From contig OZ246404.1 of NCBI GenBank assembly GCA_965230955.1, positions 500,995 to 564,994 of the forward strand: a stretch of 64,000 nucleotides of DNA, written 5' to 3'. The notes below the pieces were generated by a model, which saw nothing but the letters and a program-made list of their open reading frames with translations, was not told where the DNA came from and did not search any database. Made by a program: the position numbers and the translations under genes. This DNA comes from an uncultured Candidatus Saccharibacteria bacterium. GTDB taxonomy: Bacteria > Patescibacteriota > CALEFQ01. This document shows positions 870 to 42,239 of the stretch, piece by piece; positions within the stretch are counted from its first letter, which is position 1; every line of letters starts with the position of its first letter.

Positions 870-877
870 TTGGATTT

Positions 878-9857: not shown

Positions 9858-9913
9858 TCCGACCGGTTTCGGCTGGCGAAGTTAAATCATTACATTTGAA
9901 TAAGCTGAGAGAT

Positions 9914-10675: not shown

Positions 10676-11855
10676 TATCTGGATGGGCGGAGGCGCTCAA
10701 AAAGCCCTGATCCGCCAAGCTCTTGGTTTGCAAGAATTGGGGCACCAGGTTTTTATATTAACGACCAGGATTGATCGCCGGGAGCGGCCGGATATTCTGA
10801 ATCGATTAAATATCACCGTCGCGGATATCCCGCTGGTTTTTTATCGGGATAACCAGTATTTGCCATTAGAAAATAAATTGGTTTTGCTTAGGAATTTTTT
10901 CCGGCTGAAGAAAGCGATTAAGAAATTTGTTCGACAGCATCAAATTGACATTGTCAATCCTCAGCAAACGCCCATGCACTGGCTCTGCGGCGGCTTATCG
11001 GTTCCGGTTGTTTGGACGTGTTATGAGCCGATATCTTTGTGGCCTTCAAACAAGCCTTATTTCATAATCGGCGCCAAGAAGTTGACGGTCTTTGGCCGAC
11101 TTGCCCGATATATCTTTGAAAATTTCGACCGTCGATATGTGCGACGGCATGTCAGGAATATAATCGCCATTTCAGAAATGGTTCAGCGTGATATCAAGAT
11201 TCTATATGGATTATCCGCCCGGGTGGCTTATTTGCCTGTCGATACCGAGCTGTTGGCGACGGCCGATCCGGAGCGGGCACGCCGCCGTCTGAATATTAAA
11301 TCGTCCGATTTTGTCGTCACTCAGGTTGCCCACTTAAAGCCGGTAAAAAATCAGCGTTGTACGATCGATACCGCTAAATTGTTATTGAACAAAATTTCCA
11401 ATCTTAAAATTTTGTTGGTTGGCGGCGGACCGGATCATCAACCCTTGCTTGATTACGCCAATCGGCAAGGGCTGGCCGATCGGACAATTTTCGTTGGTCC
11501 ACAGACTGATATTCAAACAGCTGACTGTTTAGCGGCTAGCAATGTTCTGATTTTACCCGCGCGACATCAGACTTGGGGATTGGTTATATTTGAAGCTTTG
11601 TCGGCTGGGGCTTTGCCGGTCGTGGCCAATGATTGCGGGGCCAGAGTCGTTATCGAAAAAGAAAAAATCGGCTTATTGTCGGAACCGCGGCCGGAAAGTT
11701 TTGCCGCGATGATTTTTAAAGCTTATTCCGATAAAGAAAAGATGGCGGAATTGGTGCAGAGAGGAAAAAAATATACCCAGCGATATTTGAGTTACACCGG
11801 TTATGCTCAGAAAATTGATGATATTTTCCGGGAAATTGTTAACAAGGCCAGTTGA
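10650..11855 (+). CDS. GT4 (group 1) glycosyltransferase
   Basis: MKILILNPNIWMGGGAQK N-terminus. C-terminal LVGGGPD...LILPARHQTWGLVIFEALSAGALPVVAND. ATG at 10650 overlaps the upstream stop. Confidence 0.8.
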   Translation: MKILILNPNIWMGGGAQKALIRQALGLQELGHQVFILTTRIDRRERPDILNRLNITVADIPLVFYRDNQYLPLENKLVLLRNFFRLKKAIKKFVRQHQIDIVNPQQTPMHWLCGGLSVPVVWTCYEPISLWPSNKPYFIIGAKKLTVFGRLARYIFENFDRRYVRRHVRNIIAISEMVQRDIKILYGLSARVAYLPVDTELLATADPERARRRLNIKSSDFVVTQVAHLKPVKNQRCTIDTAKLLLNKISNLKILLVGGGPDHQPLLDYANRQGLADRTIFVGPQTDIQTADCLAASNVLILPARHQTWGLVIFEALSAGALPVVANDCGARVVIEKEKIGLLSEPRPESFAAMIFKAYSDKEKMAELVQRGKKYTQRYLSYTGYAQKIDDIFREIVNKAS

Positions 11856-11880
11856 CATCGAGCCGCTTTTTTACGATAAT
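11852..11880 (+). promoter_or_regulatory. sigma70-like internal promoter TTGACA-17-GATAAT overlapping the GT4 stop codon
   Basis: ttgaca 11852-11857 (contains TGA stop of upstream gene), 17-nt spacer, gataat 11875-11880; 30 nt upstream of the GT2 ATG at 11910. Confidence 0.5.
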
Positions 11881-11909: not shown

Positions 11910-12575
11910 ATGAAAACTACTGCCTGTATACCAACAAAAAATGAAGCAAAGGGGATAAAACAGGTTATCGCCGGAGTTCAGCCGTATGTCGACGAAATTC
12001 TAGTCGTCGATGGTCATTCTAGTGATCAAACCCGTGATTTGGCCCGAGAGTGCGGAGCGAGAGTTTTATTGGATAATTGCCGCGGTAAAGGCGCTGGTTT
12101 GCGTTTGGGTTTGCGGGAAGCCGGTGGAGATATCGTGGTTTTTATTGATGCGGATGGTTCGCATGACCCGAAGGATATTCCACAATTAATAGCTCCGATC
12201 AAGGAAAACAAGGCTGATTTAGTGGTTGCGTCTCGAGCGAAAGGCGGAAGTGATGAGTATCACATGAAATTTGGCCATTTGATCAGGCAATGGGGCAGTG
12301 AGTTTGCGGCGCTGACTATTAATTATCGCTGGAAAGTTGATTTGACCGATGTCCAGAATGGTTTCCGCGCCATCAAAAAAACGGTGGGATTAAAAATAAA
12401 TCTCAATGCCAACGATTTTGATATTGAGCAGGAAATGGTTATGAAAACCCTGAAGAATGGCTACCGTATTGTCGAAATCGGCAGCCATGAATCTTCACGC
12501 AGTTGGGGCAGTTCAAAACTGCCTACCTCCAAAGCCTGGAAATTCTTATATCGATTACTTAAGGAACTATTTTGA
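11910..12575 (+). CDS. small soluble GT2 glycosyltransferase (DPM1/GtrB catalytic-domain-like, no TM anchor)
   Basis: CIPTKNEAKGI...VVDGHSSDQTRD...FIDADGSHDP. 221 aa without C-terminal helices. Confidence 0.75.
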   Translation: MKTTACIPTKNEAKGIKQVIAGVQPYVDEILVVDGHSSDQTRDLARECGARVLLDNCRGKGAGLRLGLREAGGDIVVFIDADGSHDPKDIPQLIAPIKENKADLVVASRAKGGSDEYHMKFGHLIRQWGSEFAALTINYRWKVDLTDVQNGFRAIKKTVGLKINLNANDFDIEQEMVMKTLKNGYRIVEIGSHESSRSWGSSKLPTSKAWKFLYRLLKELF

Positions 12576-14014
12576 TGAAAGTTTATCTTATCAATCCGCC
12601 CGCGGTTAAGGGCGTGCGTATGGTACGCGAAGGCCGTTGTATGCAACGCGAAGGGGCTTGGACGGCAGTCTGGACTCCAATTTCGTTGGCATTGTGCGGA
12701 GCGGTGCTGGAAAAGTATGGGATGGAGTGTAAATTAACTGATTGCATTGTCGAGGAAATTGATTTGGCAAAATTGCAATCATTGGTTTCTGAGTTCAAGC
12801 CTGATTTGGTGGTTCTTAACACGGCAACTCCGTCTATTAACGGAGATTTGAAAGTCGGATCTTATTTGAAAAAAGTTTGTCCCTCGGTCAAGGTCGCGGC
12901 CATCGGCATCCATGTTACCGCAATGCCGGAGGATTCATTAAAAATTTCCAGCGGGCTTGATTATATCGTGAGCGGTGAGCCGGAGTATACCATTTTGGAG
13001 TTGGCCCGGAGACTGAAAACAAAGGCTTCTCCCGATGATATCAAAGGAATTATTTTGTCTCGGCAGGGCAAGATGATTGTAAATCCGCCTCGCCCCTATA
13101 TCGATAATCTGGATGAACTTCCTTTTCCGGCTTGGCACCTGATCGATAAAACCAAATACAAGATGCCTTTTTTGAACCGACCGTTTTTTCTTATTGCCAC
13201 CGGCCGGGGTTGTCCTTATAAATGCACTTTTTGCGCCGATTGCGCCTACTACGGTAAAAAATTGAGGCTCCGCACGCCAAAAAATATCGTTGATGAACTG
13301 GAATGGGCCGGCAAAAAACACGGGGTGATTGATTTTCTTTTTTGGTCCGAGTCATTCACGATCAATCGGCAATTTGCCAAAGATGTGGCTGATGAAATTT
13401 ACCGCCGGAAGCTGAAAATCCACTGGGTTTGCAATAGTCGCGTGGATAATGTTGATGAGGAATTGCTTCGTAAAATCAAACGGGCCGGTTGTTGGATGAT
13501 CGGCTATGGCTTAGAGTCGGCCAATCAAAAAATTCTCGACTCGGTCAAGAAGGGGATTAAGGTTGAGCAGACTATTCGGGCGGTAAAACTTTCTAAAAAA
13601 GCCGGCCTGGATGTTACGGCTCATTGCGTTCTCGGTTTCCCCGGCGAAACCGAAGAAACTATCAAGGAAACGATTCGACTGACCAAGAAGTTGCCTGTGG
13701 ATTTTGCGCAGTATTATTGTTCGGTTCCTTTCCCGGGATCGGAATTATATCAACAGGCGATTGATAGCGGTTGGGTCAATACGGACAACTGGGAACGTTT
13801 CGAGCAGAATTTTTCTATCATTGATATGCCCGGACTTTCATCCGAACGTGTAATGCAACTGCGGAAACAGGCTTATAAAGAATTTTATGTTCGCCCGCGG
13901 ATCGCGCTAAAGACACTGGGGCGAGTTCGGAATTTACACGACTTCTTGGAATTATTCCGGATGGTTCGGGCTTTCACCGATTGGACAAAAAAGGAAGATC
14001 AATGCGCCAGCTAA
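12575..14014 (+). CDS. B12-binding domain-containing radical SAM enzyme (class B rSAM), paralogue of 8379-9857
   Basis: TGRGCPYKCTFC rSAM motif. Shares ELLRK(I/M)K(R/A)(A/S)GC and (F/H)PGET(E/I)ET blocks with the first rSAM. TGATG overlap with upstream GT2 stop. Confidence 0.85.
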   Translation: MKVYLINPPAVKGVRMVREGRCMQREGAWTAVWTPISLALCGAVLEKYGMECKLTDCIVEEIDLAKLQSLVSEFKPDLVVLNTATPSINGDLKVGSYLKKVCPSVKVAAIGIHVTAMPEDSLKISSGLDYIVSGEPEYTILELARRLKTKASPDDIKGIILSRQGKMIVNPPRPYIDNLDELPFPAWHLIDKTKYKMPFLNRPFFLIATGRGCPYKCTFCADCAYYGKKLRLRTPKNIVDELEWAGKKHGVIDFLFWSESFTINRQFAKDVADEIYRRKLKIHWVCNSRVDNVDEELLRKIKRAGCWMIGYGLESANQKILDSVKKGIKVEQTIRAVKLSKKAGLDVTAHCVLGFPGETEETIKETIRLTKKLPVDFAQYYCSVPFPGSELYQQAIDSGWVNTDNWERFEQNFSIIDMPGLSSERVMQLRKQAYKEFYVRPRIALKTLGRVRNLHDFLELFRMVRAFTDWTKKEDQCAS

Positions 14015-17000
14015 TAAAAATTTTGTTGCCAATCGTGATCACGGTTGGTCTGGCTATTGTTTTTGTAGTCATCGCTTTTGATCGGCCGGCCGGCAATAGG
14101 TTGGCCGATTTTGATGTCTCAGCCTCAAATAACAGCTGCCAATCGCAATTTGATTCGCGGGGCAATGTCGGAATTTCTTATTCTCGGGCCGATGACTGTA
14201 ATGTGGAATTCACGGCAAAGTCACGGCTTTTGATTGAAAATATCGATCGAATAGATATGAAATACCTGGTTGCTGAAAATATAATTAAGGACGATCTGGT
14301 CAATATCGAAGTTTTCGGTCCGAATTGGAAGTTGATCAGCAAGAATAATTATCGAATCAGTTCCGGCATGGATTCAATCCCAGTTGACTTGCCTCAGCAG
14401 TTCAACGGTGAAATCAGTGTCATAAGATTTATTTTTTACCGCAGTGCTTTTACCGACCCGGCCGAGATAGATATTCGGTCGCTACAGTTTAGCTCCGATA
14501 ATTCTCCGAGCTGGTTTTCTGTTGTCCCGCAAATCGCCAATAAATTTGTTACCGCCGGGGCAATGATAAAAGTAGGTTTAATCAGTTTTGCCTATTATTT
14601 TTCTCGCGCCTTAAATATCCCCGTGCTGCTAAATACGATTTTGGGATTAAGCGGCATTCTAGTCTGCTTTCTTAGCGGTTGGATTATGGCGCGTCGGCTT
14701 TTTCATCAGTCTGAATTTTTACCGGCTGTATTGGCGGCTTTGCTGTTGGGTTTGGCTCAACTGACTCTGACCATGCTGGCTCTATCCTTGTTTCATCTCA
14801 TGTTTGCCGGCCCGGTCTTGGGTCTCAATTTGGCTTGTCTCGTTTTCTTGATAATCAGATATCGGTATCGATTTAGCTGGTCGCGCGCTCTGTTGCCGGT
14901 GCAAGGTTTACTACAGAAAGCTAGAAAAAATTTGTTTGTGTTTCTGGGGGTCACCATGGTTGCTGGCTTACTCCTAATTACTCTGATTCAAGCTTTGAAC
15001 GCCGCACCTTTTGGTTATGACGCCTTGGCTTATCATTTACCGATGGCGGTAGAATGGTCTGAATCGGGTCAAGTTTTCCCTATCAGTTTATCTAGTTTTC
15101 TCAGTTATATGCCCGGGGGTGCGGAATTGCTGATGTCGTACATAATCATGGCTTTTCGAAGTGACTTATTGACCAGTCTTATTCAATTGCCATTTCTTAT
15201 TATAACGGCTTTGGCGGTATATCAAATTGTCAGGAACCTCGGCGTTAGGCGAGTTGGCGCCATGATTGGAGCGCTGTTGGTTTTTTGCATTCCTGTTTTC
15301 ATCAAGGAAACTCAGCGGGCTTATATCGATTTAATTTTTATGGCGCTGGTGATGCTGGCGCTAAACTATGGTATTCAGTTTTGGCGCCGATTGGATCGAG
15401 CCAGCCTGCTTCTCGGAGCCATAACTGTCGGTTTGGCCATAGGCATGCGCTACACGGCTTGGCATTTTTTACTACCAATCTTGATTTTGTATTTGGTTGC
15501 GATGATTCGTTTTGTTCGTCAAAAGGCTTCATCGCGCCTGTTTCATTTCATTAAATTGTTATTAATTTTTATCGGCGCGGTTCTAATCTTCGGAGGATAT
15601 TGGTATATCAGGAATTGGATTATAACCGGCAATCCTATCTATCCTTCCGCTTTAGCGCCTGGAGGTTTTACTCTTTTTGATAGCGGAGTCAGCACGTCTT
15701 ATGCGAATTTTTTGTCGAGCATGACTATTTTCCCAAACTTCGGCGATATTAATTGGACGGCGCATCGCGAAGCGATTCTGACTGCCTTTGGAGCTCCTTT
15801 TCTGTGGGCGATGATGATTATTCTGATAGGCGGTTTGGTTGGTAATTTTATAGTCAAAAACACTTGGTCGGAAAAAATACTGCGGCTGTTTTTGATTTTG
15901 TTGCCTATTTATTCTATCTTCATATTCACGACCATTCCTTTTAGCTCTATTATCAATCAGTCGATGCGTTATGTTTTTGTTTTTGTTCCCCTGACAGCGG
16001 CCGTTTTGGGTTTTATTGCCGGTTGGCACAAGGTTTTTACCTGGCTGGCCGGTCTTTCCGTCCTAGGCCTTTTGATTAGTTCCTTCTGGCCGCTAGCGTT
16101 GTTTGATAAGAATAATACTATCAACTTTCCTTTTTCCGGTACAAAATTATTGGTTATTCTGTTGGTTGTTGCCTGGCTGTTGTTCCTTTTTTGGCCAATC
16201 CTTAATAAAATAATGGCCAATCGCTGGGGAAAAAATATATTACTGATTGCGATTTTGATTGGTAGCCTGGGCTTCATTGTGGGTTTTACCAATGATTATC
16301 AGATCAATAAATATTCGTGGTATCAATCGAATTACTATCAAGTTGGACAAGCGGCAAATTGGATCGATCAGAATGCCGACGGAGAGGGAATTAACCTGAT
16401 CGGTATAGATCGTCCATATCCTTTTTACGGCCGTAATTTCAAGAACAAGATTTATCAATTAAACTCGAATTCCGATCGAGATCTTCTTTATCATGAGTAC
16501 CGACGACCGTTTAAAGAAGATTGGCGAGATTACGGGCAATTAAATGTTCGACTGACTCGAAGTGGGCCGAATGATGATTCGCCTCTGCATTTAAAGCTTA
16601 ATTTTTATTCTACCGACGACAAAAATAACTATGTCCAGCTTGGTTCTTTGTCTGGGGAAATCACTGTCGGTACCAATGATTTCAGTCTGGATTTAGCCGA
16701 GTTATCGGCGCGCGACCGGGTCGTTATTATGGAATGGCAAATGACCGGTTTGGGCGATTCGGATGAATTGAAAATTGATGAGTTGGTGCTGACCGATCGT
16801 TCGTCTAAATCACCCAATTTTCCCGAAGATTTAGCAATTTTACCTAACACCTGGGAGGTAGGCGGGGAATGGCAAAATTCCGATTCAGTCTATTATGCTA
16901 CGCTTGATCGTGATTACCTTCTGCGAGTCGATTCGCCGGCAGGTGATAATGATACCGGCCGAAGTGGATATATTAAAGCCTATTTCAATACCAATGAATT

Positions 17001-17202
17001 TGGGCACATTTACGAAAATCCCAATAAAGAAATCTGGCTCCGCAATTTAAAAGAGAATGACATTAGATTTGTGGTTTCCACTTATAGCTCGACTGGAAAT
17101 GAGCGGCCGGAAATGCAGTGGATCGGCCAGCAGCCCGATATTTTTTCGGAAGTTTATTCAAATGACATGATCAAAATATTCAGGATTGATTGGCCTAATT
17201 GA
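14002..17202 (+). CDS. giant (1066 aa) polytopic membrane protein, GT-C-like. N-terminal TM, then about 170 aa ecto-domain, about 14 TM core, then about 400 aa C-terminal ecto-domain
   Basis: Hydrophobicity pattern. First-loop acidic/aromatic motif PFGYDALAYHLPMAVEW resembling GT-C first-loop motifs. RBS AAGGAAG 3 nt upstream of ATG 14002 (TTG at 13981 also in frame); stop of rSAM at 14012-14014 overlaps. Confidence 0.5.
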   Translation: MRQLIKILLPIVITVGLAIVFVVIAFDRPAGNRLADFDVSASNNSCQSQFDSRGNVGISYSRADDCNVEFTAKSRLLIENIDRIDMKYLVAENIIKDDLVNIEVFGPNWKLISKNNYRISSGMDSIPVDLPQQFNGEISVIRFIFYRSAFTDPAEIDIRSLQFSSDNSPSWFSVVPQIANKFVTAGAMIKVGLISFAYYFSRALNIPVLLNTILGLSGILVCFLSGWIMARRLFHQSEFLPAVLAALLLGLAQLTLTMLALSLFHLMFAGPVLGLNLACLVFLIIRYRYRFSWSRALLPVQGLLQKARKNLFVFLGVTMVAGLLLITLIQALNAAPFGYDALAYHLPMAVEWSESGQVFPISLSSFLSYMPGGAELLMSYIIMAFRSDLLTSLIQLPFLIITALAVYQIVRNLGVRRVGAMIGALLVFCIPVFIKETQRAYIDLIFMALVMLALNYGIQFWRRLDRASLLLGAITVGLAIGMRYTAWHFLLPILILYLVAMIRFVRQKASSRLFHFIKLLLIFIGAVLIFGGYWYIRNWIITGNPIYPSALAPGGFTLFDSGVSTSYANFLSSMTIFPNFGDINWTAHREAILTAFGAPFLWAMMIILIGGLVGNFIVKNTWSEKILRLFLILLPIYSIFIFTTIPFSSIINQSMRYVFVFVPLTAAVLGFIAGWHKVFTWLAGLSVLGLLISSFWPLALFDKNNTINFPFSGTKLLVILLVVAWLLFLFWPILNKIMANRWGKNILLIAILIGSLGFIVGFTNDYQINKYSWYQSNYYQVGQAANWIDQNADGEGINLIGIDRPYPFYGRNFKNKIYQLNSNSDRDLLYHEYRRPFKEDWRDYGQLNVRLTRSGPNDDSPLHLKLNFYSTDDKNNYVQLGSLSGEITVGTNDFSLDLAELSARDRVVIMEWQMTGLGDSDELKIDELVLTDRSSKSPNFPEDLAILPNTWEVGGEWQNSDSVYYATLDRDYLLRVDSPAGDNDTGRSGYIKAYFNTNEFGHIYENPNKEIWLRNLKENDIRFVVSTYSSTGNERPEMQWIGQQPDIFSEVYSNDMIKIFRIDWPN

Positions 17203-17207
17203 CAAAC

Positions 17208-19946
17208 ATGCCAACCCCTAGTCGAAAATTGTTTTTCCTGATATTTATCGGCATCGTAATCGCGTTGGGTTATTTTGCTTTGCGCCAGACGTTCGTCAAT
17301 CCCGGCACCTTGGGTCATAATTGGGACTGGTCATTTCCCGCTCTCGCATCGCAATTAGCCACAGCTATGCCGAAGATGTTTTCCAGCTGGTCATACACCA
17401 GTCTGGGATCGCCCGCAATTTTAAGCATTCCGGTCAATCTGTTGCTGGCGGTTTTTTTCTCCTTTGGAACGATCGGTATCTCCGGAGAACTTGTCTCTAA
17501 AGCTGTAGTATTCAGCACCTTGATTATTGGCAGTATCGGGATGTATCTCTACCTGGGGCTGTTCTTTTTGAGATCGGCCAAACCCACTTGGCTCGGTGTT
17601 TTACCGGTTTTTCTGGGTGCCGTCTTTTTCGGATTCTCTCCATTCATCTTTAGTGAATTTATTGGCGGGGCGGTGTCGCAGTTCATTTCTTATGCCGTCA
17701 TTCCTTTCGCTTTGTTTTTTTTCGCCTTGTCGCAAAATTCTGCCAAATTTCGTTGGTTTTTGATATTCGCTACAGCCTTGGTTTTATCGATACTCACGAT
17801 TTCGACCCATAATTTGATCATCGCGGTTGTTTTAACGGTTCTCTTGATTGTCGTTTCCGAGAATCGCCGCCGATACTTCTGGAGCTTGATCGGATTGGCT
17901 GCGTTTTATATCCTGATGAATTTATACTGGATGATTCCGTTTGTTTCAGAATTATTTTTTGCTCAGACCTTTTTTGAATCTGAATCATTTTTGTCGCTGA
18001 TCAATGTCATTAAGGCGGCCCCGAATATTGCCCGAGCTTGGTTTCAGATCGGTTATGCCCGACTCTTTTTTGAAAACATCATGTCGGTTGCCTGGCTGCC
18101 TTGGTGGATCTTGGGTGTCGGCGGTTTCTGTGCGGTGCTTATCGGTTCGGTTTTAAAATCAAAAAACAAGTACGCAAATTTTTGGTTATTGTTATTTCTC
18201 GGGGCACTGGTTTTCGTCACGGCCGGTGTGGCGCCGCTCGGGGAGCAAGTGGTTTGGTTATTCCAAAATGTTTCAGTAATTCGAGGTTTTAGATCAATTC
18301 AGCATTTCATTCCAGTCAGCGTCTTTACCTTTTCGGTTGTATTGGCTTTTGGTGTTAATTTTATCTTGATCCGCCTGAAACCGGCTAATAAATTTATCGG
18401 CCAAGCGGTGATAGCCGTGCTAGTTTTGGGCACGGCGGTCTGGATCGCCCCTTTTATCATCAGCGGCGATATTGGCAGTGCCAAGCTGGCTGAACGAGAG
18501 ATGAGCTATATTGATAGTTTCCAATTGTCGCCCGGCTATATCAAGGCGCACCAATTAATCAACGAGGAAAAAGAAACTGTCAGATTTTTGCCTTTGCCGG
18601 CCGCATTTTCTCCTGTTTATCTGCCGACTGAATATCAAGCCTATGCCCAGGGCGGCGATCCTACACTGTCCACGTTTGCTATTCCGGCTGTTGTGGCAGA
18701 TTTCGCGCCACAGGGGCATCCCAAGAAAATGATGCAGGTTTTTGAAAAGAATATTTGCGAGGAAAACCTTTCGCCGTCCGAAAACAATCAGTTGCTGTCC
18801 TTGCTAAATATCAAATATATAATGCAGCGGCAAGATCTCGAACCCAACCCCGGCAGTCTCTGCAGTAAACGTTGGTTTCCTGATTTAATTGATGATTATT
18901 TGCGATCCGATCCGGGCTTAAAATCTGTTTTTAGTGAAGATTACATCAAGCTTTACCAGTTGTCCGATTATTTTCCGAGAATTTATGCCGCAAATCGTAA
19001 CCTCATGATTGATGGTCCGGTCGATACGCTAAATGACGTTATTAAACATGATGATCTGCAGTTATCCACTAATATTTTTTTTACTGATCTGAAACCTTCT
19101 CCTCGGCCAGACCAGATTTCCACTAATTACCTTCGGCAGAGTTTTGAGGTCGAAGATACCCAGTTTCTAGAGGCTTCCGGTATATGGTCGAGTGACAAAG
19201 GCAGTACCACCAGAGATATAATTTATCCGGCCAGCGGGTCGGAATTCAACGAGCTGGTTTATAAAATACCGATTAAGGAATCCGGGCAATACGAGTTATA
19301 TGTTAAAATAAGACATGACACCGACGAAGGTCTGCTGCAAGCGACGATCGATGGGGAAAAAATAGGCCAACCGCTCGATGTCTATTACAAAAGTCCTTAT
19401 TCGGCTGAAGGCAAAAGTTCATATTACTACCAATCGGTAAAAGTTGGAGATGTGGACCTGGCTGCCGGCGATCATCAGTTTAGCTTTGCCAGTCTACCCG
19501 CTCTGGATAAAAGGCTCGAAAAATACAAGCAGAGCCTGGACATGTTTTATCTGGTGAAAATAGAAAATTCTTTTATAGAGTCGGAACAAGGCGCTCTGCC
19601 CGCTGTGCAATTTTCGCAAACCAGTCCGACGACCTACCGGGTTAGTGTCTCCGGCGCCAACGCCCCGTACTACCTTAATTTCTTGGAAACATATAATTCC
19701 AACTGGAAATTACGGATAAATGGACAAGAAATTTCTGCGGATAAACATTTCGTTGTTAATGGCTATGCCAATTCTTGGCGTATAGACAATCAACAAGATT
19801 GGCAGGGTGAAATAGTGTATCGGACCCAAGAGTTGTTTTATCTCGGCCTGTGGTTGTCCGGCTTGGGGGCTCTGGCCTTGCTGATGTTAACTTTATCTCT
19901 GCCGTATTTTGCGAAGAAGCCTAAGCAAATCGACTATGCCAAGTAA
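17208..19946 (+). CDS. YfhO-like GT-C membrane glycosyltransferase (about 12 TM, C-terminal ecto-domain, terminal TM helix)
   Basis: N-terminal loop GHNWDWSFPAL; C-terminal module SNWKLRINGQEISADKHFVVNGYANSWRI...YLGLWLSGLGALALL (pattern W-K-x-x-x-N-G ... N-G ... terminal TM) as in YfhO-family proteins. Contains AAGDHQFSFASL beta-module motif. Confidence 0.5.
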   Translation: MPTPSRKLFFLIFIGIVIALGYFALRQTFVNPGTLGHNWDWSFPALASQLATAMPKMFSSWSYTSLGSPAILSIPVNLLLAVFFSFGTIGISGELVSKAVVFSTLIIGSIGMYLYLGLFFLRSAKPTWLGVLPVFLGAVFFGFSPFIFSEFIGGAVSQFISYAVIPFALFFFALSQNSAKFRWFLIFATALVLSILTISTHNLIIAVVLTVLLIVVSENRRRYFWSLIGLAAFYILMNLYWMIPFVSELFFAQTFFESESFLSLINVIKAAPNIARAWFQIGYARLFFENIMSVAWLPWWILGVGGFCAVLIGSVLKSKNKYANFWLLLFLGALVFVTAGVAPLGEQVVWLFQNVSVIRGFRSIQHFIPVSVFTFSVVLAFGVNFILIRLKPANKFIGQAVIAVLVLGTAVWIAPFIISGDIGSAKLAEREMSYIDSFQLSPGYIKAHQLINEEKETVRFLPLPAAFSPVYLPTEYQAYAQGGDPTLSTFAIPAVVADFAPQGHPKKMMQVFEKNICEENLSPSENNQLLSLLNIKYIMQRQDLEPNPGSLCSKRWFPDLIDDYLRSDPGLKSVFSEDYIKLYQLSDYFPRIYAANRNLMIDGPVDTLNDVIKHDDLQLSTNIFFTDLKPSPRPDQISTNYLRQSFEVEDTQFLEASGIWSSDKGSTTRDIIYPASGSEFNELVYKIPIKESGQYELYVKIRHDTDEGLLQATIDGEKIGQPLDVYYKSPYSAEGKSSYYYQSVKVGDVDLAAGDHQFSFASLPALDKRLEKYKQSLDMFYLVKIENSFIESEQGALPAVQFSQTSPTTYRVSVSGANAPYYLNFLETYNSNWKLRINGQEISADKHFVVNGYANSWRIDNQQDWQGEIVYRTQELFYLGLWLSGLGALALLMLTLSLPYFAKKPKQIDYAK

Positions 19947-21474
19947 TTTCAGACAATTTTTATCGAATCAGCGCTTGTTTTTATTCTGGGGCGGTTTGCT
20001 TATTTGGTTACTGGCCATGTGGGTGTTTAACTTTGATCTTTTGGGTGCGGCGGCCGGCTTTCTTTTGTATTTCGCTCTCGTCTATAAAATTTCTCAGAAA
20101 TACATTTTATTGGCGTGTGCCGCCTTTGGTGCCGCCAGTTTAGTTAGTTTTTTTATTGTCGGCTTGGATTCGGTCGTTGGAAATTATTCCCTAATCATAG
20201 CCTTCTTTTTGTTAGCAATATCGGTTTTGATAATTATGCGCGAATCGCTTATCAAGCGGCCCCGCTGGGTGATTGATTTTTCCGGTCGCCAAACAGCTTG
20301 GCTGGCGGTAATAATTTTGATTTTCATTGCTTTTTTCATTGTTCAACCGGTCTTGAGCCAACCGGGGTATTCATTTTCCGGTGATTTTTCTTTTCCTTTC
20401 TCTTTGGAGAATTACTGGCAAAACCGAATCAATACCTGGAGTGTTTCTCACAGTGCTAGCGTCTTTGGAGACTTGGGGCATCTGTTTTATCTCAGTCCCG
20501 GGATTGGGCTGGCACTGGCCAGTGGAGGAGGAATGGCGCTGCTATTAAAAATTTTAATTGTTATTCCTTTTATCGTTTCCGGGCTGGGTATGTTTTTTCT
20601 GGCTCGAATGATTTTTCGGTCAATCTATCCCGGATTAAACAAATATATAGTCCCGGCGGCGCTGGTCGCGGCTGTCATTTATCAATTTAATCCCTGGGTC
20701 CTCGATCATCAGCCCCATTATTTTTTGCTGGTCGGGTATTCATTTTTGCCGTTAACGCTGATGTTTGCCGTGCTGGCCTGGGAAAAACAACGATTTCTTT
20801 GGATTTTTCTGGCCGCTTTGTTTTTTGCAATCACGACCGTGACCCCTCATTACATGGTTTATACGGCGATCGTTTTACTGATAGTATTTTTGATCTATCT
20901 CGTGGCCGATATCTGGCGTCGACGCTGGGCGCTGGCCGGAAAGCGATTTGTAATCAGTATTATGCTTTTATTACTGGCCATTATTTTTTCATCTTTTTGG
21001 CTTTGGCCGCTCGTTAGCGTGCAACTTGATACCGGTGAAAAATTAGCACCTGATTACGTATTGCGAGTGGATGATATCGTGGCCGCCAATTCTAATTTGT
21101 CAGTGGAAGCCGTATTTCAATTAAGCACGCCGGATCTGAAAAATACCGACAGCCAATGGCTCTGGCGTTTGGCGGCCTTTAGCCTGCCGGCCCTGGCCCT
21201 GACCGGTTTTGTTCTGAATTATAAGCGTCGCTGGGCCTTAACTCTGTTGATTTTACTTCTGGCCGCCTGGGTTATTCCATTGGTATTTTTGTTTTTACCT
21301 GGAGTCTATTCCGATCTGATATATCGACTGCCTTTTTCATGGATTCTGCATGATCCCAGCCGAACGCTTGGCTTGGCTTGCCTCGGGTACGGACTGCTGA
21401 TTGGTCTGTTTATCCTTCGCCTGACGGATCACTGGTCCAAAAAAATGTCAGTTAAAGATAATTATGCTAAATAA
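19936..21474 (+). CDS. polytopic membrane protein (about 14 TM) resembling the TM core of a YfhO-like GT-C enzyme, no ecto-domain
   Basis: All-hydrophobic 512 aa. Loop motif SGDFSFPFSLENYWQN, which parallels the first-loop motifs of the two upstream proteins. ATG 19936 overlaps the upstream stop. Confidence 0.45.
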   Translation: MPSNFRQFLSNQRLFLFWGGLLIWLLAMWVFNFDLLGAAAGFLLYFALVYKISQKYILLACAAFGAASLVSFFIVGLDSVVGNYSLIIAFFLLAISVLIIMRESLIKRPRWVIDFSGRQTAWLAVIILIFIAFFIVQPVLSQPGYSFSGDFSFPFSLENYWQNRINTWSVSHSASVFGDLGHLFYLSPGIGLALASGGGMALLLKILIVIPFIVSGLGMFFLARMIFRSIYPGLNKYIVPAALVAAVIYQFNPWVLDHQPHYFLLVGYSFLPLTLMFAVLAWEKQRFLWIFLAALFFAITTVTPHYMVYTAIVLLIVFLIYLVADIWRRRWALAGKRFVISIMLLLLAIIFSSFWLWPLVSVQLDTGEKLAPDYVLRVDDIVAANSNLSVEAVFQLSTPDLKNTDSQWLWRLAAFSLPALALTGFVLNYKRRWALTLLILLLAAWVIPLVFLFLPGVYSDLIYRLPFSWILHDPSRTLGLACLGYGLLIGLFILRLTDHWSKKMSVKDNYAK

Positions 21475-23821
21475 ACCAACAGCCATACAGCTTTTTATGT
21501 TTCTCGTCGGTGCAATCGCGACGCTATTATTGATTTGGGCCGCGCCTGTCTATCTTAATTTTTGGGTACCGGATTTCTCCCCGAAAGTTTTACCGGCAGA
21601 ATTTGAACACGAGAGCCAGCTACAGTTATCGGACAGCGGAACTGGTCGGTATCTTAATTTGCCGGTTGTCTTCAATGCTAAGCAATTTGAATGGAGTAAT
21701 GAAAAAAAAGTCTATGATTTTCCGGCTTTTCTTTCAAACAAACCTTCTTTCTCCTCTCAAAATAGCTATGCCAGAAATTTTTTACTTTTTTTGCAAGAAA
21801 AATGGCAACAAGGGCAGAGACTCAGTCCTTATTTCAATCTAGCCGGGGTCAGTCGAATTGTATTTCGAACTGATTTGAAAAATAATGAATTGTCCGAACC
21901 GGACAAGATGAAATTGCGAGAGGTATTATTGAGGGACGATGGCTTGACCAGTGGCGAACGCCGAGGATTCATCACGGAATTCACCAATGCTTCGCCCAAT
22001 GAAATTGTTTATGCCAATGAACAGACTTTATTGGTTTGGGGCGGTCTAGATACTATACAAAGCCTCCGAGCGGCCCAAAATTTTGATCCGGCTAAAACCA
22101 ATTTATTGTTTGCTCATCAGTATCTGAATCCTGGCCAAATCGAAAGGTTGGCTGATTTTTCCGATGCTCTGGTGATAAAGAACGGTACCCGTCGCGATGA
22201 TCTGATCCCCAGTTTTATTGATCCTGATTTTTTCATCCGCCCGTATAATTACCTCAATTCGCTGGAAAATCAGACCTCTTGGAACAAGGCCAGCGTTTAT
22301 GAGCCTTTGCATGGCGAATGGCACAAAACATTGCGCGAGAGTCTTCAATTGCAAGATTGGGACTTTGATTACGGTCAGGGGCTGGTTTATTCGATGAGAT
22401 CGGGAGAAGGAGAATCTTTTTTCCCGACAGTAATGAATCTGGATTTCCAAGTCCGGGAACCGGGCGATTATTATTTATTGATCAGGCAGTTTGTCAACAA
22501 TCGCGGCGAGCAGATGTCTTATCGAATCGACAACTCTGATCGTAAAAAAATAAGCAGCTATTCACCGATCGGGCAATGGCAATGGCAAAAAGTCGAGACT
22601 GTCTCGTTAACAGCCGGCCAGCACAAAATAACTCTGGAGAACACCGATGGATTTTATGCCGTCAATTTGATGGCTTTTGTTCCGAAAGCGGCCTATGACC
22701 GAGCCCTGGAAAAAGTCGATGACTATTTGGCTCAAAAAAAGATTATCTATACCCAGGAGTTAAATGTCGCCCGGCTCTTGGCCGGCATTGAGACTGAATT
22801 ACCGATCAAATCCGGATCGGAGTTTAACCTCTCGTGTCCGACTTCAGAATGTCAAAACTATAACCTGGTTTCCGATAATGACGAAAAAATAATGGCGGCA
22901 TCTGAGTACGTTAAAAAAGATAAATTTGATCTTTTGCGATACTTCCCGGGCGGTTCCTTTGATAAACTGAGGCTGGAATTCAATGAAACGGAATCAGTTT
23001 CCGGGATAACTTTGAAAATTCATGATCCCGCCGGCATTAAGCTGAATATTCAGGATGGGAAAAAATGGTTCGAAATATCTTCCCAGGCAAAAAGTAAGCA
23101 TTTCAGAGTCTTATCCGAGCCTATTGCCGTCAAGCCTGACAGTACCTATGCTTGTGATCTGGAATTTCAGTTGGAAAATATCAAAGATTTGTCGGTCAGA
23201 GTTTTGCAGTATGACAAAATTGATGATATTGGCAAAAATAGTCCGAAACGAAGTGATAAAATTTCAACGAAACTGACCGAGGATAATCAAGCGGTTGTAA
23301 TAATCGACGATATTATAACTCGCCCCGACGTAAACTATGTCGTATTTGAGTTTTCTGCGGAGCAAAATAAATTGAAAGACAGTCGATGGGCATTGACCGA
23401 TTTTGCCCTGGCCAAAGTGGATGACGGGGTCACTGAGAAAACATCGTCAATGGTTATCATGCCGCCAGATTTTGAGTTTTCCAATAAGCAATACCCGATA
23501 ACTTTTGACAAGAACAGCGGCATAAATTATTCGGTTGATTTGCCCGAAAAAACCAGTTTGCTTTTGACTGTCACCGAAAGCTATGACGATTTGTGGCATG
23601 CCGGCTGCGGTACGGATCAATCGTTCGACCATGTCATGAACTATGGATTTATGAATGGGTTTTTGATTGGTGAGGGATGCCCGGGGTCGGTCGAGATTAC
23701 CTACGTCCCGCAAAAATGGTATCGATACGGAATTTGGGCGAGTTTAATATCAATCTTCCTGGGTGCGATTTTTTCCTTAATTCTATGGCGCAAACGGAAA
23801 AATCATGATCACCGCGAATAG
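21464..23821 (+). CDS. bitopic envelope protein: N-terminal TM, about 730 aa ecto-domain ending in a YfhO-C-terminal-like module, then a C-terminal TM anchor with basic tail
   Basis: N-terminal helix LFMFLVGAIATLLLIWAAPVYL. C-terminal SYDDLWHAGCG...NYGFMNGFLIGEGCPGSVEITYVPQKWYRYGIWASLISIFLGAIF...RKRKNH. Contains TAGQHKITLEN motif. Its frame opens directly after a stop at 21422-21424, so it is not a frameshifted continuation. Confidence 0.45.
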   Translation: MLNKPTAIQLFMFLVGAIATLLLIWAAPVYLNFWVPDFSPKVLPAEFEHESQLQLSDSGTGRYLNLPVVFNAKQFEWSNEKKVYDFPAFLSNKPSFSSQNSYARNFLLFLQEKWQQGQRLSPYFNLAGVSRIVFRTDLKNNELSEPDKMKLREVLLRDDGLTSGERRGFITEFTNASPNEIVYANEQTLLVWGGLDTIQSLRAAQNFDPAKTNLLFAHQYLNPGQIERLADFSDALVIKNGTRRDDLIPSFIDPDFFIRPYNYLNSLENQTSWNKASVYEPLHGEWHKTLRESLQLQDWDFDYGQGLVYSMRSGEGESFFPTVMNLDFQVREPGDYYLLIRQFVNNRGEQMSYRIDNSDRKKISSYSPIGQWQWQKVETVSLTAGQHKITLENTDGFYAVNLMAFVPKAAYDRALEKVDDYLAQKKIIYTQELNVARLLAGIETELPIKSGSEFNLSCPTSECQNYNLVSDNDEKIMAASEYVKKDKFDLLRYFPGGSFDKLRLEFNETESVSGITLKIHDPAGIKLNIQDGKKWFEISSQAKSKHFRVLSEPIAVKPDSTYACDLEFQLENIKDLSVRVLQYDKIDDIGKNSPKRSDKISTKLTEDNQAVVIIDDIITRPDVNYVVFEFSAEQNKLKDSRWALTDFALAKVDDGVTEKTSSMVIMPPDFEFSNKQYPITFDKNSGINYSVDLPEKTSLLLTVTESYDDLWHAGCGTDQSFDHVMNYGFMNGFLIGEGCPGSVEITYVPQKWYRYGIWASLISIFLGAIFSLILWRKRKNHDHRE

Positions 23822-24896
23822 AATTTTAGTTATCAAGCGCGACGCTTTGGGCGACGTTATTTCCGTCACCCCGTTTTTAGAAGTTCTGCGTCGTAATTTT
23901 CCCGCAGCCCATATTACTTACCTGGTTGGATCATGGTCGCAAGCTGTCCTGAAAAACAATCCCAGTATCGATGAATTGGTTGTGGTTGATTCTAAAACTT
24001 GGCAGAACCCGATTAAAAAATTCCTGGCCCGGGCTAAATTGGGCAAACGATTGCAGTCGCAAAATTTTGATACAGTGTTTATTCTCCAAGGACCGGCGCC
24101 GTTTCGCTTTTGGGAAAACTTCGCTCTAGCCTTAGGAGCGGTAAATCGATTGGGATTCAAAAAGCACGGAGCCTCTTCCTCCTTGACTGGTTTGATTGAA
24201 TTGCCGGTTTATACCGATCACCTTTTTAAAGTCCTCAGGCGGAATCGGGCTGAATACTATCTAGATTTGCTTATCCGGGCCGGCGTCCGAGATACCACTA
24301 ACGACGGAAATAAGCTGTATGCGACTGCCGAAGACCGACATTTTGCAGAAAATTTTTGGACCAAAAATAATTTGGCCGGTAAAAAAGTCATTACTATCGC
24401 TCCCGGCGGGGCAGTGAATCCCGGGATGAAGCAACTGGCGAAACGCTGGCCGGCAGATTGTTACGCGCAAGCCATAGATCGATTAACCGATCAGCCTTCC
24501 GTCCGGATTGTATTTGTCGGCGGTCCCAGTGATAAATCATTGATCGAAGAAATTACCCGGAAATTGACGCCGATCAAACAACGCCAGATCCTTAATACGG
24601 CCGGATTAACAAATATCCACCAAACGGCCGAATTAATCGCCAGATCAGCGCTATTTATCGGAAATGACTCTGGCACTATCCATATTGCTTCCACGACCAA
24701 AACGCCTATAATTGGCTTGTATGGCCCCACAAACCCTGTGGTTGATGGTCCATATAAGGCCCGGGGTATCAATTTGTTCCATAAAACGTCGTTTTCACCG
24801 TGCTACACCATGGACTGTTCCGGCCACAAACCTTGTATTGAAAATATCACCGTCGAAGAGGTGATTACCACCGCTCAAAAAATCCTAGAACCTTGA
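23805..24896 (+). CDS. GT9 family glycosyltransferase (heptosyltransferase-like)
   Basis: ILVIKRDALGDVISVTPF N-terminal motif and GNDSG...H, typical of WaaC/WaaF/WaaQ-type GT9. 17-nt overlap with upstream gene. Confidence 0.85.
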   Translation: MITANRILVIKRDALGDVISVTPFLEVLRRNFPAAHITYLVGSWSQAVLKNNPSIDELVVVDSKTWQNPIKKFLARAKLGKRLQSQNFDTVFILQGPAPFRFWENFALALGAVNRLGFKKHGASSSLTGLIELPVYTDHLFKVLRRNRAEYYLDLLIRAGVRDTTNDGNKLYATAEDRHFAENFWTKNNLAGKKVITIAPGGAVNPGMKQLAKRWPADCYAQAIDRLTDQPSVRIVFVGGPSDKSLIEEITRKLTPIKQRQILNTAGLTNIHQTAELIARSALFIGNDSGTIHIASTTKTPIIGLYGPTNPVVDGPYKARGINLFHKTSFSPCYTMDCSGHKPCIENITVEEVITTAQKILEP

Positions 24897-26436: not shown

Positions 26437-26473
26437 AACCCCGCGAATCTCTGAACTATCAGGACCTGGGGTT
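26437..26473. terminator. putative bidirectional terminator between convergent flippase (+) and GT9 (-) genes
   Basis: aacccc / ggggtt stem enclosing a 25-nt loop, flanked by AAAAAA (plus side) and ATTTTAT; an additional weak hairpin aaagtgt / acacttt sits at 26401-26422 on the flippase stop. Stems are weak. Confidence 0.35.
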
Positions 26474-32913: not shown

Positions 32914-33013
32914 GGTGATCAACTCATCAGATCATTTGTCTCGCCAAGGTAATTATTCTTTTAAGCATGGGAGATCCCATTCGGGAAATACTTAAAAGAA
33001 TAATTAGCTTGGC

Positions 33014-34087: not shown

Positions 34088-34155
34088 AAATACACAAATA
34101 GTGGTCTGAATAAAAATCAAGAATCTAACGCTTATTTTAGCCCAAAGTTACCATT

Positions 34156-37285: not shown

Positions 37286-37288
37286 ATT

Positions 37289-42047: not shown

Positions 42048-42075
42048 GAATATTTAAAAGCAAAAGCTAAAAATT

Positions 42076-42227: not shown

Positions 42228-42239
42228 ACTAATCGTATT

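Follow-up and report, generated by a model that had tools for sequence, protein, structure and literature searches.

A run of mostly overlapping genes on the + strand of a 64,000-nt stretch of DNA (the window) encodes three GT-C glycosyltransferase units from two families, preceded by a radical SAM enzyme with a cobalamin-binding domain and a small GT2 gene. The neighborhood of GT2, radical SAM enzyme and GT-C enzyme recurs in other loci. The enzyme types are known, whereas their recurring combination appears to be undescribed: in line with the first-pass annotation, which had stated that this is not a described cassette, we found no description of the GT2/B12-radical SAM/GT-C combination in the literature searched. 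On balance, we read the operon as a multi-enzyme form of the known three-component systems for extracytoplasmic glycosylation, assembled from two modules.

Extent and conservation of the operon

The five genes reported at first pass are present on the + strand at 12575-14014, 14002-17202, 17208-19946, 19936-21474 and 21464-23821, and public gene calls made independently on this sequence agree on the protein lengths (479, 1066, 912, 512 and 785 aa). We refer to their products as rSAM2, P2, P3, P4 and P5. Overlaps of 4-17 nt had been claimed for the whole series. The coupled junctions are real, but the sizes need amending: on the original coordinates, rSAM2 and P2 overlap by 13 nt, and P3/P4 and P4/P5 by 11 nt each, while P2 and P3 are separated by a 5-nt gap that becomes a 4-nt overlap only with TTG at 17199 as the start. 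The 17-nt overlap belongs to P5 and the following gene, a GT9 at 23805.

The coupled block is longer than five genes, because the upstream gene for a small soluble GT2 (11910..12575, +, 221 aa) also overlaps rSAM2, its stop running 1-4 nt into the rSAM2 start. The functional unit begins at this GT2, one gene earlier than first described, and extends into the GT9 and a flippase gene. The genes form a real operon, in the order promoter-like site, GT2, rSAM2, P2, P3, P4, P5, GT9 and Wzx-like flippase, as supported by the overlapping junctions, the location of the best promoter-like site just 5' of GT2 and an identical gene order in a related locus (L012). The promoter-like site (TTGACA-17-GATAAT, 11852..11880, +) is a consensus match at 11 of 12 positions in the 54-nt gap 5' of GT2. 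As the best + strand match within 8-27 kb, it is likely to be the start of the transcription unit.

The GT9 (23805..24896, +, 363 aa) is a heptosyltransferase-like enzyme, scoring 137.9 bits with TIGR02195 against a cut-off of 134.6. The candidate translocase, a MOP flippase of 488 aa (24936..26402, +), starts 39 nt downstream; it matches Pfam Polysacc_synt and scores 100 bits with NCBIfam Wzx_EPS, below that model's cut-off, which makes its Wzx assignment weak. No GtrA/GtcA-type flippase, nor any small GtrA-like gene, is present in the block.

The operon sits in a glycan island of ~50 kb that contains a second GT2/B12-radical SAM pair (7457..9857, +), in which a GT2 (7457-8386) overlaps rSAM1 (8379-9857) by 8 nt; rSAM1 is 53% identical to an Aenigmatarchaeota protein with the same GT2 neighbor. 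The window also encodes a GT2 with C-terminal TM helices that resembles ArnC/GtrB-type polyprenyl-phosphate glycosyltransferases (851..1822, +; 203 bits with the NCBIfam ArnC model and 160 bits with PgfS, neither reaching its cut-off). Its homologues (43-57% identity) lie near P3-family genes in three other loci (L005, L008 and L012), and it is a possible second donor synthase for the GT-C enzymes. The co-occurrence with GtrB-like genes, put forward as a check at first pass, holds, with both GtrB/ArnC-like and AglJ/PpgS-like GT2 genes found alongside. The annotated parts of the window contain no DPA-pathway genes among their annotations.

The cassette is conserved beyond this genome. In L012, a relative at about 60% identity, the whole gene order is kept, the division between P4 and P5 included (513 + 784 aa, 59-64% identity), with rSAM2 being 84% identical. 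Another locus, L013, keeps a P3-like gene, P4P5 and GT9 without rSAM or P2. In both loci the GT9 directly follows the P4P5 homologue (73% identical in L012, 83% in L013). The block looks composite, with GT2-rSAM-P2 as module A and P3-P4/P5-GT9 as module B.

The GT-C enzymes

P2, P3 and the P4/P5 pair are GT-C glycosyltransferases, not transporters. Hydropathy and AF2 helices give P2, P3 and P4 the 8-13 or more TM helices and large outer loops of the GT-C fold, there is structural similarity to solved GT-C enzymes, and each has a conserved acidic residue in the first outer loop of its core (P2 D340, P3 D40, P4 D150), the outside location following from the positive-inside rule and helix count only. 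An acidic/aromatic motif shared by the first loops of these proteins had been noted at first pass. All three strings are indeed present at family-conserved residues, but in P2 and P4 extra TM helices precede them, so that the loop is the first of the GT-C core and not of the protein. The proteins had further been described as four paralogous GT-C proteins. They are all GT-C, but they make up three units, since P4 and P5 belong together, and P2 comes from a different family.

P2 (14002..17202, +, 1066 aa) is of the PMT_2/ArnT type. It consists of an N-terminal TM helix, a beta-sandwich ecto-domain, a polytopic core with D340-x3-Y-H and a C-terminal beta-rich ecto-domain. The N-terminal ecto-domain, correctly recognized at first pass, is modeled as a beta-sandwich at residues 37-164 (pLDDT about 70-83), in an AF2 model of only moderate quality (pLDDT 65). 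Like that of P3, the Pfam hit is right at threshold: PMT_2 (PF13231) gives 26.7 bits, marginally above the gathering cut-off of 26.1, and 4 of 13 family members match it (best E 5e-11). Foldseek agrees on the fold, with ArnT (5f15) as the top match (E 1.2e-5, TMt 0.57) and further matches to EmbA/B/C, STT3, ALG9/12, Pmt4 and CBM6/29/86 modules. D340, Y344 and H345 are fully or almost fully conserved across 13 sequences, D340 being nearly invariant. Judged by profile comparison (hhalign probability 32%), P2 is in a different GT-C family from P3 and P4/P5.

P3 (17208..19946, +, 912 aa) is an AftD-like GT-C: besides its TM core (1-423), it has an ecto-domain with a CBM35/6-like module and a C-terminal beta module followed by a single TM helix at the end. 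Its best structural match is AftD, the mycobacterial arabinofuranosyltransferase (PDB 6W98/6WBX), and it reaches 26.2 bits with GT-C_AftD (PF11847, formerly DUF3367; cut-off 26.0), a profile that neither P4 nor P5 matches and that only 2 of the 18 P3-family members hit (E<=0.01). G36, H37, N38, W39 and D40, in the first outer loop, are invariant in the 18 sequences, and a GH..D motif is found in 127 of 159 wider P3-family representatives at a median position of 36. The invariant Asp in the first outer loop of the core falls where AftD has its essential D41 (10.1101/2019.12.22.885152). For the C-terminal module, AftD is the sole PDB relative, at a marginal E of 0.01. P3 is not an AftD by architecture, however. 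AftD has 16 TM helices, three CBMs and an acyl carrier protein-binding helical bundle at its C terminus (10.1101/2019.12.22.885152); in P3, a single helix (872-901) takes the place of the bundle and there is one CBM35/6-like module. P3 is also shorter (912 aa versus about 1400 aa), and the two proteins are only 10-13% identical.

P4 (19936..21474, +, 512 aa) and P5 (21464..23821, +, 785 aa) are, on their alignment to a single longer relative, the two halves of one enzyme paralogous to P3. This 1254-aa relative (P0026) spans both, P4 aligning to residues 15-490 (E 5e-34) and P5 to 554-1236 (E 7e-44). P4 is the N-terminal, polytopic half with the catalytic loop. P5 is bitopic, with one TM helix at either end of a ~720-aa ecto-domain, and supplies this ecto-domain and the last TM helix. 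In hhalign, the P3 and P4 families match with a probability of 99.9% (E 6e-31), and P5 matches the P3 family with a probability of 99.3%, its residues 13-205 pairing with P3 400-616. D150 of P4 lies opposite D40 of P3 in the P3/P4 alignment, within a G-D150-F-S-F-P motif in the first loop of the core (G149, D150, F153 and P154 are invariant in three sequences). The PMT_2 score of P4, 16.7 bits, is below threshold.

Two of the proteins had been said to end in a YfhO-like module. The module and its terminal TM helix are real and homologous between P3 and P5, but the YfhO label is not supported. PF09586 has no match at E<=1 in P2, P3, P4 or P5 and none at E<=0.01 among the 18 P3-family members. 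In related loci (L014 and L031) this profile picks up genuine YfhO proteins.

The radical SAM enzyme and its neighbors

The first gene had been called a B12 radical SAM enzyme, and the profiles bear this out. rSAM2 (12575..14014, +, 479 aa) scores 52.9 bits with B12-binding (PF02310; cut-off 32.1) and 101.9 bits with Radical_SAM (PF04055; cut-off 29.5), and its CX3CX2C motif lies in GRGCPYKCTFCA (C-PYK-C-TF-C). An N-terminal B12-binding domain followed by a radical SAM core with this motif predicts a cobalamin-dependent, class B enzyme of HpnJ/BchE-like type; PDB relatives are AprD4, TokK, CysS, TsrM-type and OxsB. The best NCBIfam match is HpnJ (TIGR03471), over the full length (281.7 bits, E 1e-83). 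This is only about half of the cut-off of 577.6, and the window has no hopanoid gene context; rSAM2 was therefore rejected as an HpnJ equivalog, and its chemistry cannot be read from the HpnJ family. The proposed substrate of HpnJ itself is the lipid-linked glucosamine of bacteriohopanetetrol, and in a similarity network the enzyme co-localizes with Fom3 and MoeK5 (fosfomycin and moenomycin), which are listed, with GenK and GenD1, as methylating carbon centers (PMC9204698). These class B C-methyltransferases share the B12-binding domain and radical SAM core with rSAM2, but they belong to antibiotic pathways and not to envelope glycan operons with GT-C enzymes, and rSAM2 is closer to the non-methylating HpnJ/BchE group.

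The small GT2 upstream has AglJ (125.7 bits), PpgS (83.2) and a Dol-P-hexose transferase (65.3) as its three best NCBIfam matches. All three are polyprenyl-phosphate monosaccharide synthases, and all scores are below the equivalog cut-offs. Among 71 rSAM2 orthologues (>=44% identity), 49 loci could be assessed for adjacent genes, and in 23 of these the same AglJ/PpgS-like GT2 (45-61% identity) is directly upstream; in some loci a methyltransferase or GT9 takes its place. A polytopic protein lies within 5 kb downstream in 23 of 31 loci, and one of >=400 aa lies within 3 kb in 18 of the 22 loci having 3 kb on both sides. Seven of ten downstream polytopic representatives match PMT_2, YfhO or Alg9-like Pfam models. 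The exact order GT2, rSAM, polytopic protein occurs in only 9 of the 22 fully assessable loci, so the trio is frequent and not universal. GT2-rSAM pairs often overlap, and L014 has alternating YfhO and B12-rSAM genes. From the side of the GT-C enzymes, an rSAM lies no more than 10 kb away in 11 of the 17 P3-family loci. The P3 family is found in uncultured bacteria and archaea, including Methanocaldococcus, and not in Actinobacteria.

Since such islands are dense in glycan genes, part of the raw rSAM/GT-C adjacency could be hitch-hiking. The radical SAM enzyme would then tailor a nucleotide sugar or cytoplasmic intermediate, for example by C-methylation, for Leloir GT2, GT4 or GT9 enzymes, and the GT-C enzymes would use ordinary polyprenyl-phosphate hexoses with no specific link to it. 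The window is crowded with GT2, GT4, GT9 and methyltransferase genes; GT2 is the tightest and most frequent partner of the rSAM, including an rSAM-GT2 fusion (L016); and 6 of the 17 P3-family loci lack an rSAM, with L013 keeping the AftD-like pair in its absence, so that the AftD-like enzymes do not need one. We nonetheless regard this explanation as rather unlikely. The partner GT2 resembles polyprenyl-phosphate monosaccharide synthases and not chain-extending enzymes, and HpnJ, the closest functional precedent in one review (PMC9204698), is proposed to act on a lipid-linked sugar. Furthermore, a polytopic, mostly GT-C-family protein directly follows the rSAM in 22 of the 49 loci, and these proteins come from at least 10 unrelated sequence clusters, which points to selection for the pairing and not to shared descent.

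It seems improbable that, instead of decorating or polymerizing a glycan, the GT-C-like proteins O- or N-glycosylate envelope proteins such as S-layer proteins or pilins, in the way of PMT, PglB or AglB. AftD, the best structural match of P3, acts on glycans, P2 and P3 carry CBM6/29/35-like modules typical of polysaccharide binding, and the Wzx, Wzy_C-like and heptose enzymes of the island are typical of polymer assembly. Least probable is that the rSAM modifies the polyprenyl carrier or another membrane lipid, much as HpnP/HpnR methylate hopanoids and the ladderane/tetraether rSAM enzymes modify lipids, with the GT-C enzymes glycosylating lipids or proteins independently. Reviews list many lipid-modifying rSAM enzymes, and rSAM2 matches a lipid-biosynthesis B12-rSAM model (126.7 bits) and HpnR (97.5 bits), but these scores are far below those of HpnJ and BchE and below the models' own cut-offs. 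The genes conserved beside the rSAM encode a probable sugar-loading GT2 and GT-C enzymes, not isoprenoid or lipid synthesis, and no lipid biosynthesis genes were seen in the window.

Proposed function and relation to known systems

Under the two-module reading of the operon, we infer the donor lipid, the substrate and chemistry of rSAM2, the order of steps, the flippase and the acceptor as follows. In module A, the AglJ/PpgS-like GT2 would put a sugar on polyprenyl phosphate at the cytoplasmic face, and rSAM2 would tailor the lipid-linked sugar by C-methylation or radical rearrangement. Once the donor had been flipped across the membrane, P2 would attach the rSAM-modified sugar to a glycan or protein at the surface, with the acceptor held by the CBM-like ecto-domains of P2. 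In module B, P3 and the two-gene P4 + P5 enzyme would add further sugars from lipid donors outside the membrane, and GT9 would make a heptose-containing acceptor in the cytoplasm.

Known three-component systems include GtrA/GtrB/Gtr(type), CsbB/GtcA/YfhO for LTA, and polyprenyl-phosphoribose synthase/MATE/GT136 with an auxiliary epimerase (PMC5836110, PMC8035078, PMC11127046). What the operon shares with them is a GT2 resembling polyprenyl-phosphate sugar synthases that is encoded together with GT-C enzymes, a candidate flippase and CBM-like modules on the ecto-enzymes. Auxiliary enzymes that alter polyprenyl-phosphate sugars also exist in such systems (PMC11127046), and the epimerase is a precedent for an additional donor-tailoring enzyme. 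Here, in contrast, the auxiliary role would fall to a cobalamin radical SAM enzyme, the operon has three GT-C units with one split into two genes, no GtrA/GtcA-type flippase is encoded, and the GT2 adjoining the rSAM has no TM helices. ArnC/ArnT and PpgS/Rv3779, too, are two-enzyme systems, in which a GT-C of the PMT_2/ArnT fold receives its donor from a polyprenyl-phosphate sugar synthase; P2 matches ArnT best in structure, and PpgS ranks among the best hits of the GT2. P2, however, is twice as large as ArnT, carrying a beta-sandwich ecto-domain at each end and additional TM helices at the N terminus, and the rSAM gene is inserted between the synthase and GT-C genes. HpnI (GT2)/HpnK/HpnJ, of bacteriohopanetetrol cyclitol ether synthesis, likewise pair a GT2 with an HpnJ-like cobalamin rSAM, and for HpnJ a rearrangement of lipid-linked glucosamine has been proposed. 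Our operon, however, has an AglJ/PpgS-like GT2, GT-C genes come after the pair, no deacetylase gene adjoins it and the window has no hopanoid genes.

More tentatively, we propose that GT2 -> cobalamin rSAM -> GT-C is a widespread, undescribed class of extracytoplasmic glycosylation system that occurs in uncultured bacteria and archaea with small genomes and has relatives in Methanocaldococcus. In such a system the rSAM would rewrite a sugar carried on polyprenyl phosphate, which a GT-C enzyme would then place on the cell surface. Candidate products are a sugar with a C-methyl branch and, following the proposal for HpnJ, a ring-contracted or carbocyclic one. The cultivable Methanocaldococcus indicus carries a related cluster that could be used for experiments, and the natural two-gene split of a GT-C enzyme will be useful for dissecting domain roles. 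The AftD-like GT-C family is large (13,759 cluster representatives) and mostly missed by Pfam.

Almost nothing is known about the glycans on the surface of uncultured bacteria and archaea with small genomes, although they probably mediate host attachment and phage recognition. If the coupling that we propose is true, this would be the first radical SAM/B12 chemistry on a lipid-linked sugar donor feeding GT-C transferases, and unusual sugars, branched or ring-contracted, would be predicted on these cells. The class as a whole, if borne out, would bring radical chemistry on lipid-linked donors into the repertoire by which surface glycans are known to be diversified.

Gene layout and conservation of the block

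The block comprises five ORFs on the forward strand: a B12-binding radical SAM protein (rSAM2, 12575-14014, 479 aa) and the membrane proteins P2 (14002-17202, 1066 aa), P3 (17208-19946, 912 aa), P4 (19936-21474, 512 aa) and P5 (21464-23821, 785 aa). All lie where the first-pass annotation had placed them. Their lengths agree with those predicted independently on public contigs of identical sequence, namely Logan SRR10083292-4 and an NCBI contig of 1,136,458 bp. The annotation had reported overlaps of 4-17 nt throughout. Three junctions do overlap, by 13 nt (rSAM2/P2), 11 nt (P3/P4) and 11 nt (P4/P5), but P2 and P3 are separated by a 5-nt gap, which becomes a 4-nt overlap only with TTG 17199 as the start codon, and the value of 17 nt belongs to the junction of P5 with the next gene, a GT9 (23805-24896, +). 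A Wzx-like flippase (24936-26402, +) begins 39 nt after the GT9. Upstream, the stop codon of a soluble 221-aa GT2 (11910-12575; GT2 11910) overlaps the rSAM2 start by 1-4 nt. The 54-nt gap directly 5′ of this GT2 holds the best sigma-70-like match on the + strand within 8-27 kb (11852-11880, 11/12 matches, a consensus match only). The transcription unit therefore likely begins at the GT2 and runs through rSAM2, P2, P3, P4, P5 and GT9, then, after 39 nt, the flippase. Rfam searches of the window returned no RNA elements.

The cassette is conserved in one relative (locus L012), which keeps the whole order: GT4, GT2, rSAM, P2, P3, P4, P5, GT9. A second (L013) retains a P3-like gene, a fused P4P5 and the GT9, without rSAM or P2. 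From these two loci, the block looks composite, with GT2-rSAM-P2 as one module and P3-P4/P5-GT9 as another.

Conservation along the block is strongly asymmetric (window 12575-24896 against L012 5329-17692 and L013 13714-14829). In L012 the cytoplasmic enzymes share 72-84% identity with those of the window (GT2 72%, rSAM 84%, GT9 73%), and for the GT9 of L013 the figure is still 83%. Identities of the membrane and ecto GT-C proteins reach 41-64% in L012 (P2 only 41%, P3, P4 and P5 59-64%) and only 23-24% in L013, a pattern compatible with the surface-facing enzymes having been replaced or being under diversifying selection.

Three GT-C units from two families

Hydropathy indicates that P2, P3 and P4 are polytopic, while P5 has only one N-terminal and one C-terminal helix. 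In Pfam, PMT_2 matches P2 (26.7 bits, cut-off 26.1), GT-C_AftD matches P3 (26.2 bits, cut-off 26.0), PMT_2 also matches P4, though weakly, and P5 has no match. The AlphaFold model of P3, built on an 18-sequence alignment (pLDDT 78, membrane core ~90), has mycobacterial AftD as its best Foldseek match (6w98, E 2.2e-14), with ArnT and PglB next, and includes a CBM35/CBM6-like module. The P2 model (pLDDT 65, core 80-90) matches ArnT (E 1.2e-5, TMt 0.57), EmbA/B/C, STT3, ALG9/12, Pmt4 and PimE, as well as CBM6/29/86 modules; the N-terminal ecto-domain proposed earlier appears in it as a beta-sandwich at residues 37-164. PDB sequence searches with P2, the P2 family and the P5 family gave non-significant matches only (Pmt1 E 0.05, AftD E 0.48). 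Pfam, profile and fold searches all point to GT-C, as the first-pass annotation had suggested, which rules out transporters or unrelated DUFs. Its YfhO-like label for two C-terminal modules does not hold: the YfhO profile (PF09586) matches none of P2-P5 at E<=1, and Pfam likewise gives no YfhO match at E<=0.01 among 18 P3-family members.

P4 and P5 are, on sequence comparison, one enzyme in two genes, paralogous to P3. A single 1254-aa protein (P0026) aligns to P4 over its residues 15-490 (E 5e-34) and to P5 over its residues 554-1236 (E 7e-44). Profile comparisons link the P3 family to the P4 family (99.9% probability, E 6e-31) and to the P5 family (99.3%, E 1.6e-20). Residues 13-205 of P5 match 400-616 of P3, a stretch that runs from the last core helix into the beginning of the ecto-domain, and there is homology between the C-terminal module of P3 and that of P0026/P5 (E 2e-12). 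The split is not a frameshift, pseudogene or assembly error, because L012 has the same pair (513 + 784 aa, 11-nt overlap) at 59-64% identity; some other family members, P0154 among them, are likewise standalone halves. The idea of a single paralogous set of four fails on P2, which reaches only 32% hhalign probability against the P3 family and a BLAST E of 0.006 or worse; by these comparisons it shows no demonstrable relation to the P3/P4/P5 group beyond a common fold. In all, then, the block specifies three GT-C units, which fall into two families.

The loop motifs noticed in the first pass sit on conserved residues. G36-H-N-W-D40 of P3 is invariant across the 18 aligned sequences, and GH..D recurs in 127 of 159 wider family representatives (median position 36), the rest being mostly N-terminally truncated or carrying G-x-x-x-D variants. 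Profile comparison places P3 D40 opposite P4 D150, and D340, Y344 and H345 are conserved in P2. The essential residues of AftD include K39 and D41 (10.1101/2019.12.22.885152), and their loop may be the equivalent, by position only, of the P3 motif loop. The ecto-domain of P5 has a motif of its own (residues 273-310; gene 21464-23821), SW-x-KASVYEPLHGEWHK...WD-x-D-x-G-x-GLVYS, which does not vary among the four P5-family sequences, although their overall identities are 23-59%, and has no counterpart in P3.

The P3 family is large. With clustering at 50% identity, it accounts for 13,759 cluster representatives at E<=1e-3; at E<=1e-30 the number is 3,091. GT-C_AftD matches only 2 of 18 members, so that Pfam mostly misses the family; P3 itself is a borderline member of AftD and lacks its ACP-binding architecture. 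Carriers among species representatives include Aenigmatarchaeota, Moranbacteria, WWE3 and Methanocaldococcus indicus.

The radical SAM enzyme and its recurrent partners

rSAM2 combines a B12-binding domain with a radical SAM core bearing CX3CX2C. Among curated families it scores highest with HpnJ (281.7 bits, full-length alignment) and next with BchE. rSAM2 is not HpnJ, because this score is half the equivalog cut-off; score and gene context together rule out HpnJ orthology or a hopanoid pathway. For GT2 11910, the top three NCBIfam matches (AglJ, PpgS and Dol-P-hexose transferase) each belong to the polyprenyl-phosphate monosaccharide synthases, and the expected co-occurrence with GtrB-like genes is borne out by an ArnC/GtrB-type GT2 at 851-1822 in the same island.

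Scanning metagenomes for rSAM2, we obtained 80 loci; an orthologue at >=44% identity is present in 71. A GT2 of the 11910 type (45-61% identity) lies directly upstream of the orthologue in 23 of 49 assessable loci, and a protein with at least five TM helices directly downstream in 22 of 49, or within 5 kb in 23 of 31. These 22 downstream proteins form at least 10 unrelated BLAST clusters. Among 10 representatives, PMT_2 matches six (one also Alg9-like), YfhO matches one, another is a methyltransferase fusion and the remaining two match nothing. Where 3 kb is available on both sides (22 loci), the GT2 is present in 14, a downstream polytopic protein in 14, a polytopic protein on either side in 18 and the exact GT2-rSAM-polytopic order in nine. 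This rSAM thus recurs, though not in every locus, beside a GT2 of the donor-synthase type and a GT-C whose family varies. The coupling argument is weakest here, since these are raw counts without a background rate for B12-rSAM in glycan islands. The enzyme might instead be hitch-hiking in the island and act on nucleotide sugars or cytoplasmic intermediates; set against the recurrence, we judge this unlikely, although it is the rival that survives best.

A functional coupling of rSAM, GT2 and GT-C remains our preferred reading, and P3-family loci display a similar neighbourhood: 11 of 17, counting the window, have a radical SAM gene within 10 kb, often directly beside a GT2.

Several individual loci deserve description. 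L016 (1-2035, JGI 3300062532) carries one ORF of >=772 aa with Radical_SAM and GT2 domains, a natural rSAM-GT2 fusion of the pair adjacent elsewhere. In L014 (1-21735, Logan SRR26582958), YfhO or PMT_2 genes alternate with three B12-rSAM genes, in the order YfhO (762 aa), B12-rSAM, YfhO (915 aa), B12-rSAM, a 1003-aa CBM protein, an AftD-like protein (695 aa), a 109-aa ORF, a 995-aa protein, a 111-aa ORF, PMT_2, B12-rSAM, PMT_2 and a YfhO/PTPS-related protein. The GT2 at window 90-869 (+) shares 51% identity with a GT2 from Methanocaldococcus indicus (L011 7386-8405). The archaeal cluster, located in strain SL43 at about 1.147-1.170 Mb of NZ_CP186926, reads GT2, B12-rSAM, GT2, MT, GT2, P3-like GT-C; its B12-rSAM belongs to a separate, well-conserved subfamily (N-terminus MKIAxSYPPLESEKGVPLLSQNRQFQ) also present in WWE3 and other bacterial loci.

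The window has a second GT2-B12-rSAM pair of overlapping genes (7457-9857, +), followed by a methyltransferase (9896-10675). Its rSAM1 shares 53% identity with a protein from Aenigmatarchaeota, and the GT2 adjoining that protein is also conserved (31%; pair at L004 14785-17126, -), which suggests a pair shared across domains. The longest ORF of this GT2 (7325-8386) would overlap the preceding methyltransferase (6766-7464) by 140 nt. In public gene calls the start lies at ~7457 (309 aa), leaving an 8-nt overlap.

A predicted pathway in the glycan island

The operon structure, GT-C identity, P4/P5 split, P3-P4/P5 paralogy, cassette conservation and recurrent neighbourhood are established, and a pathway can be proposed around them. 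GT2 11910 would make a polyprenyl-phosphate sugar, which rSAM2 would tailor at the cytoplasmic face; the donor would then be flipped, possibly by the Wzx-like protein. P2 would bind a surface acceptor through its CBM-like domains and pass the sugar on to it, further sugars from lipid donors would be added by P3 and P4/P5, and GT9 would contribute a heptose-containing acceptor. For HpnJ, ring contraction of a lipid-linked glucosamine has been proposed, and the enzyme co-localises in a similarity network with Fom3 and MoeK5, both listed as carbon-centre methylases (PMC9204698). A three-component system in which an auxiliary enzyme changes a polyprenyl-phosphate sugar has been demonstrated (PMC11127046).

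The proposed acceptor draws on the surrounding genes. The window encodes four heptosyltransferase-like GT9 genes (23805-24896, 26472-27503, 31747-32922 and 33014-34120) and a heptose-nucleotide pathway at 35710-37903 with GmhB, an HldE kinase domain (369 bits, above the cut-off of 345) and GmhA. Together these genes imply a heptose-rich glycan, which need not be LPS. Glycosylation of proteins rather than decoration of a glycan is improbable, and modification by the rSAM of the lipid instead of the sugar is less probable still.

Two further large polytopic proteins, one of 838 aa (2967-5483, +) with a weak Agl23/PMT_2-type match and an L012 orthologue that matches PMT_2, the other of 650 aa (29792-31744, -) with no family match, mean that the island may hold five GT-C-type units. 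It continues at 40566-52161 with a second Wzx-like flippase, GT4 genes, a GT2, a Wzy_C/O-antigen-ligase-like protein (45498-47072) and a DUF4012 protein (48990-50936), in an organism whose genome is probably very small.

The first-pass annotation regarded the cassette as undescribed, and full-text searches for B12-rSAM with GT-C, YfhO, GtrB, CPR or DPANN, whose coverage was not exhaustive, found nothing relevant. All the proteins belong to known superfamilies: GT2, class B radical SAM, GT-C of the ArnT/PMT_2 and AftD types, GT9 and MOP flippase. The new element is the system-level arrangement, of predicted function, in which a donor-synthase GT2, a cobalamin rSAM and a GT-C are brought together and here enlarged by a split AftD-like paralogue pair.
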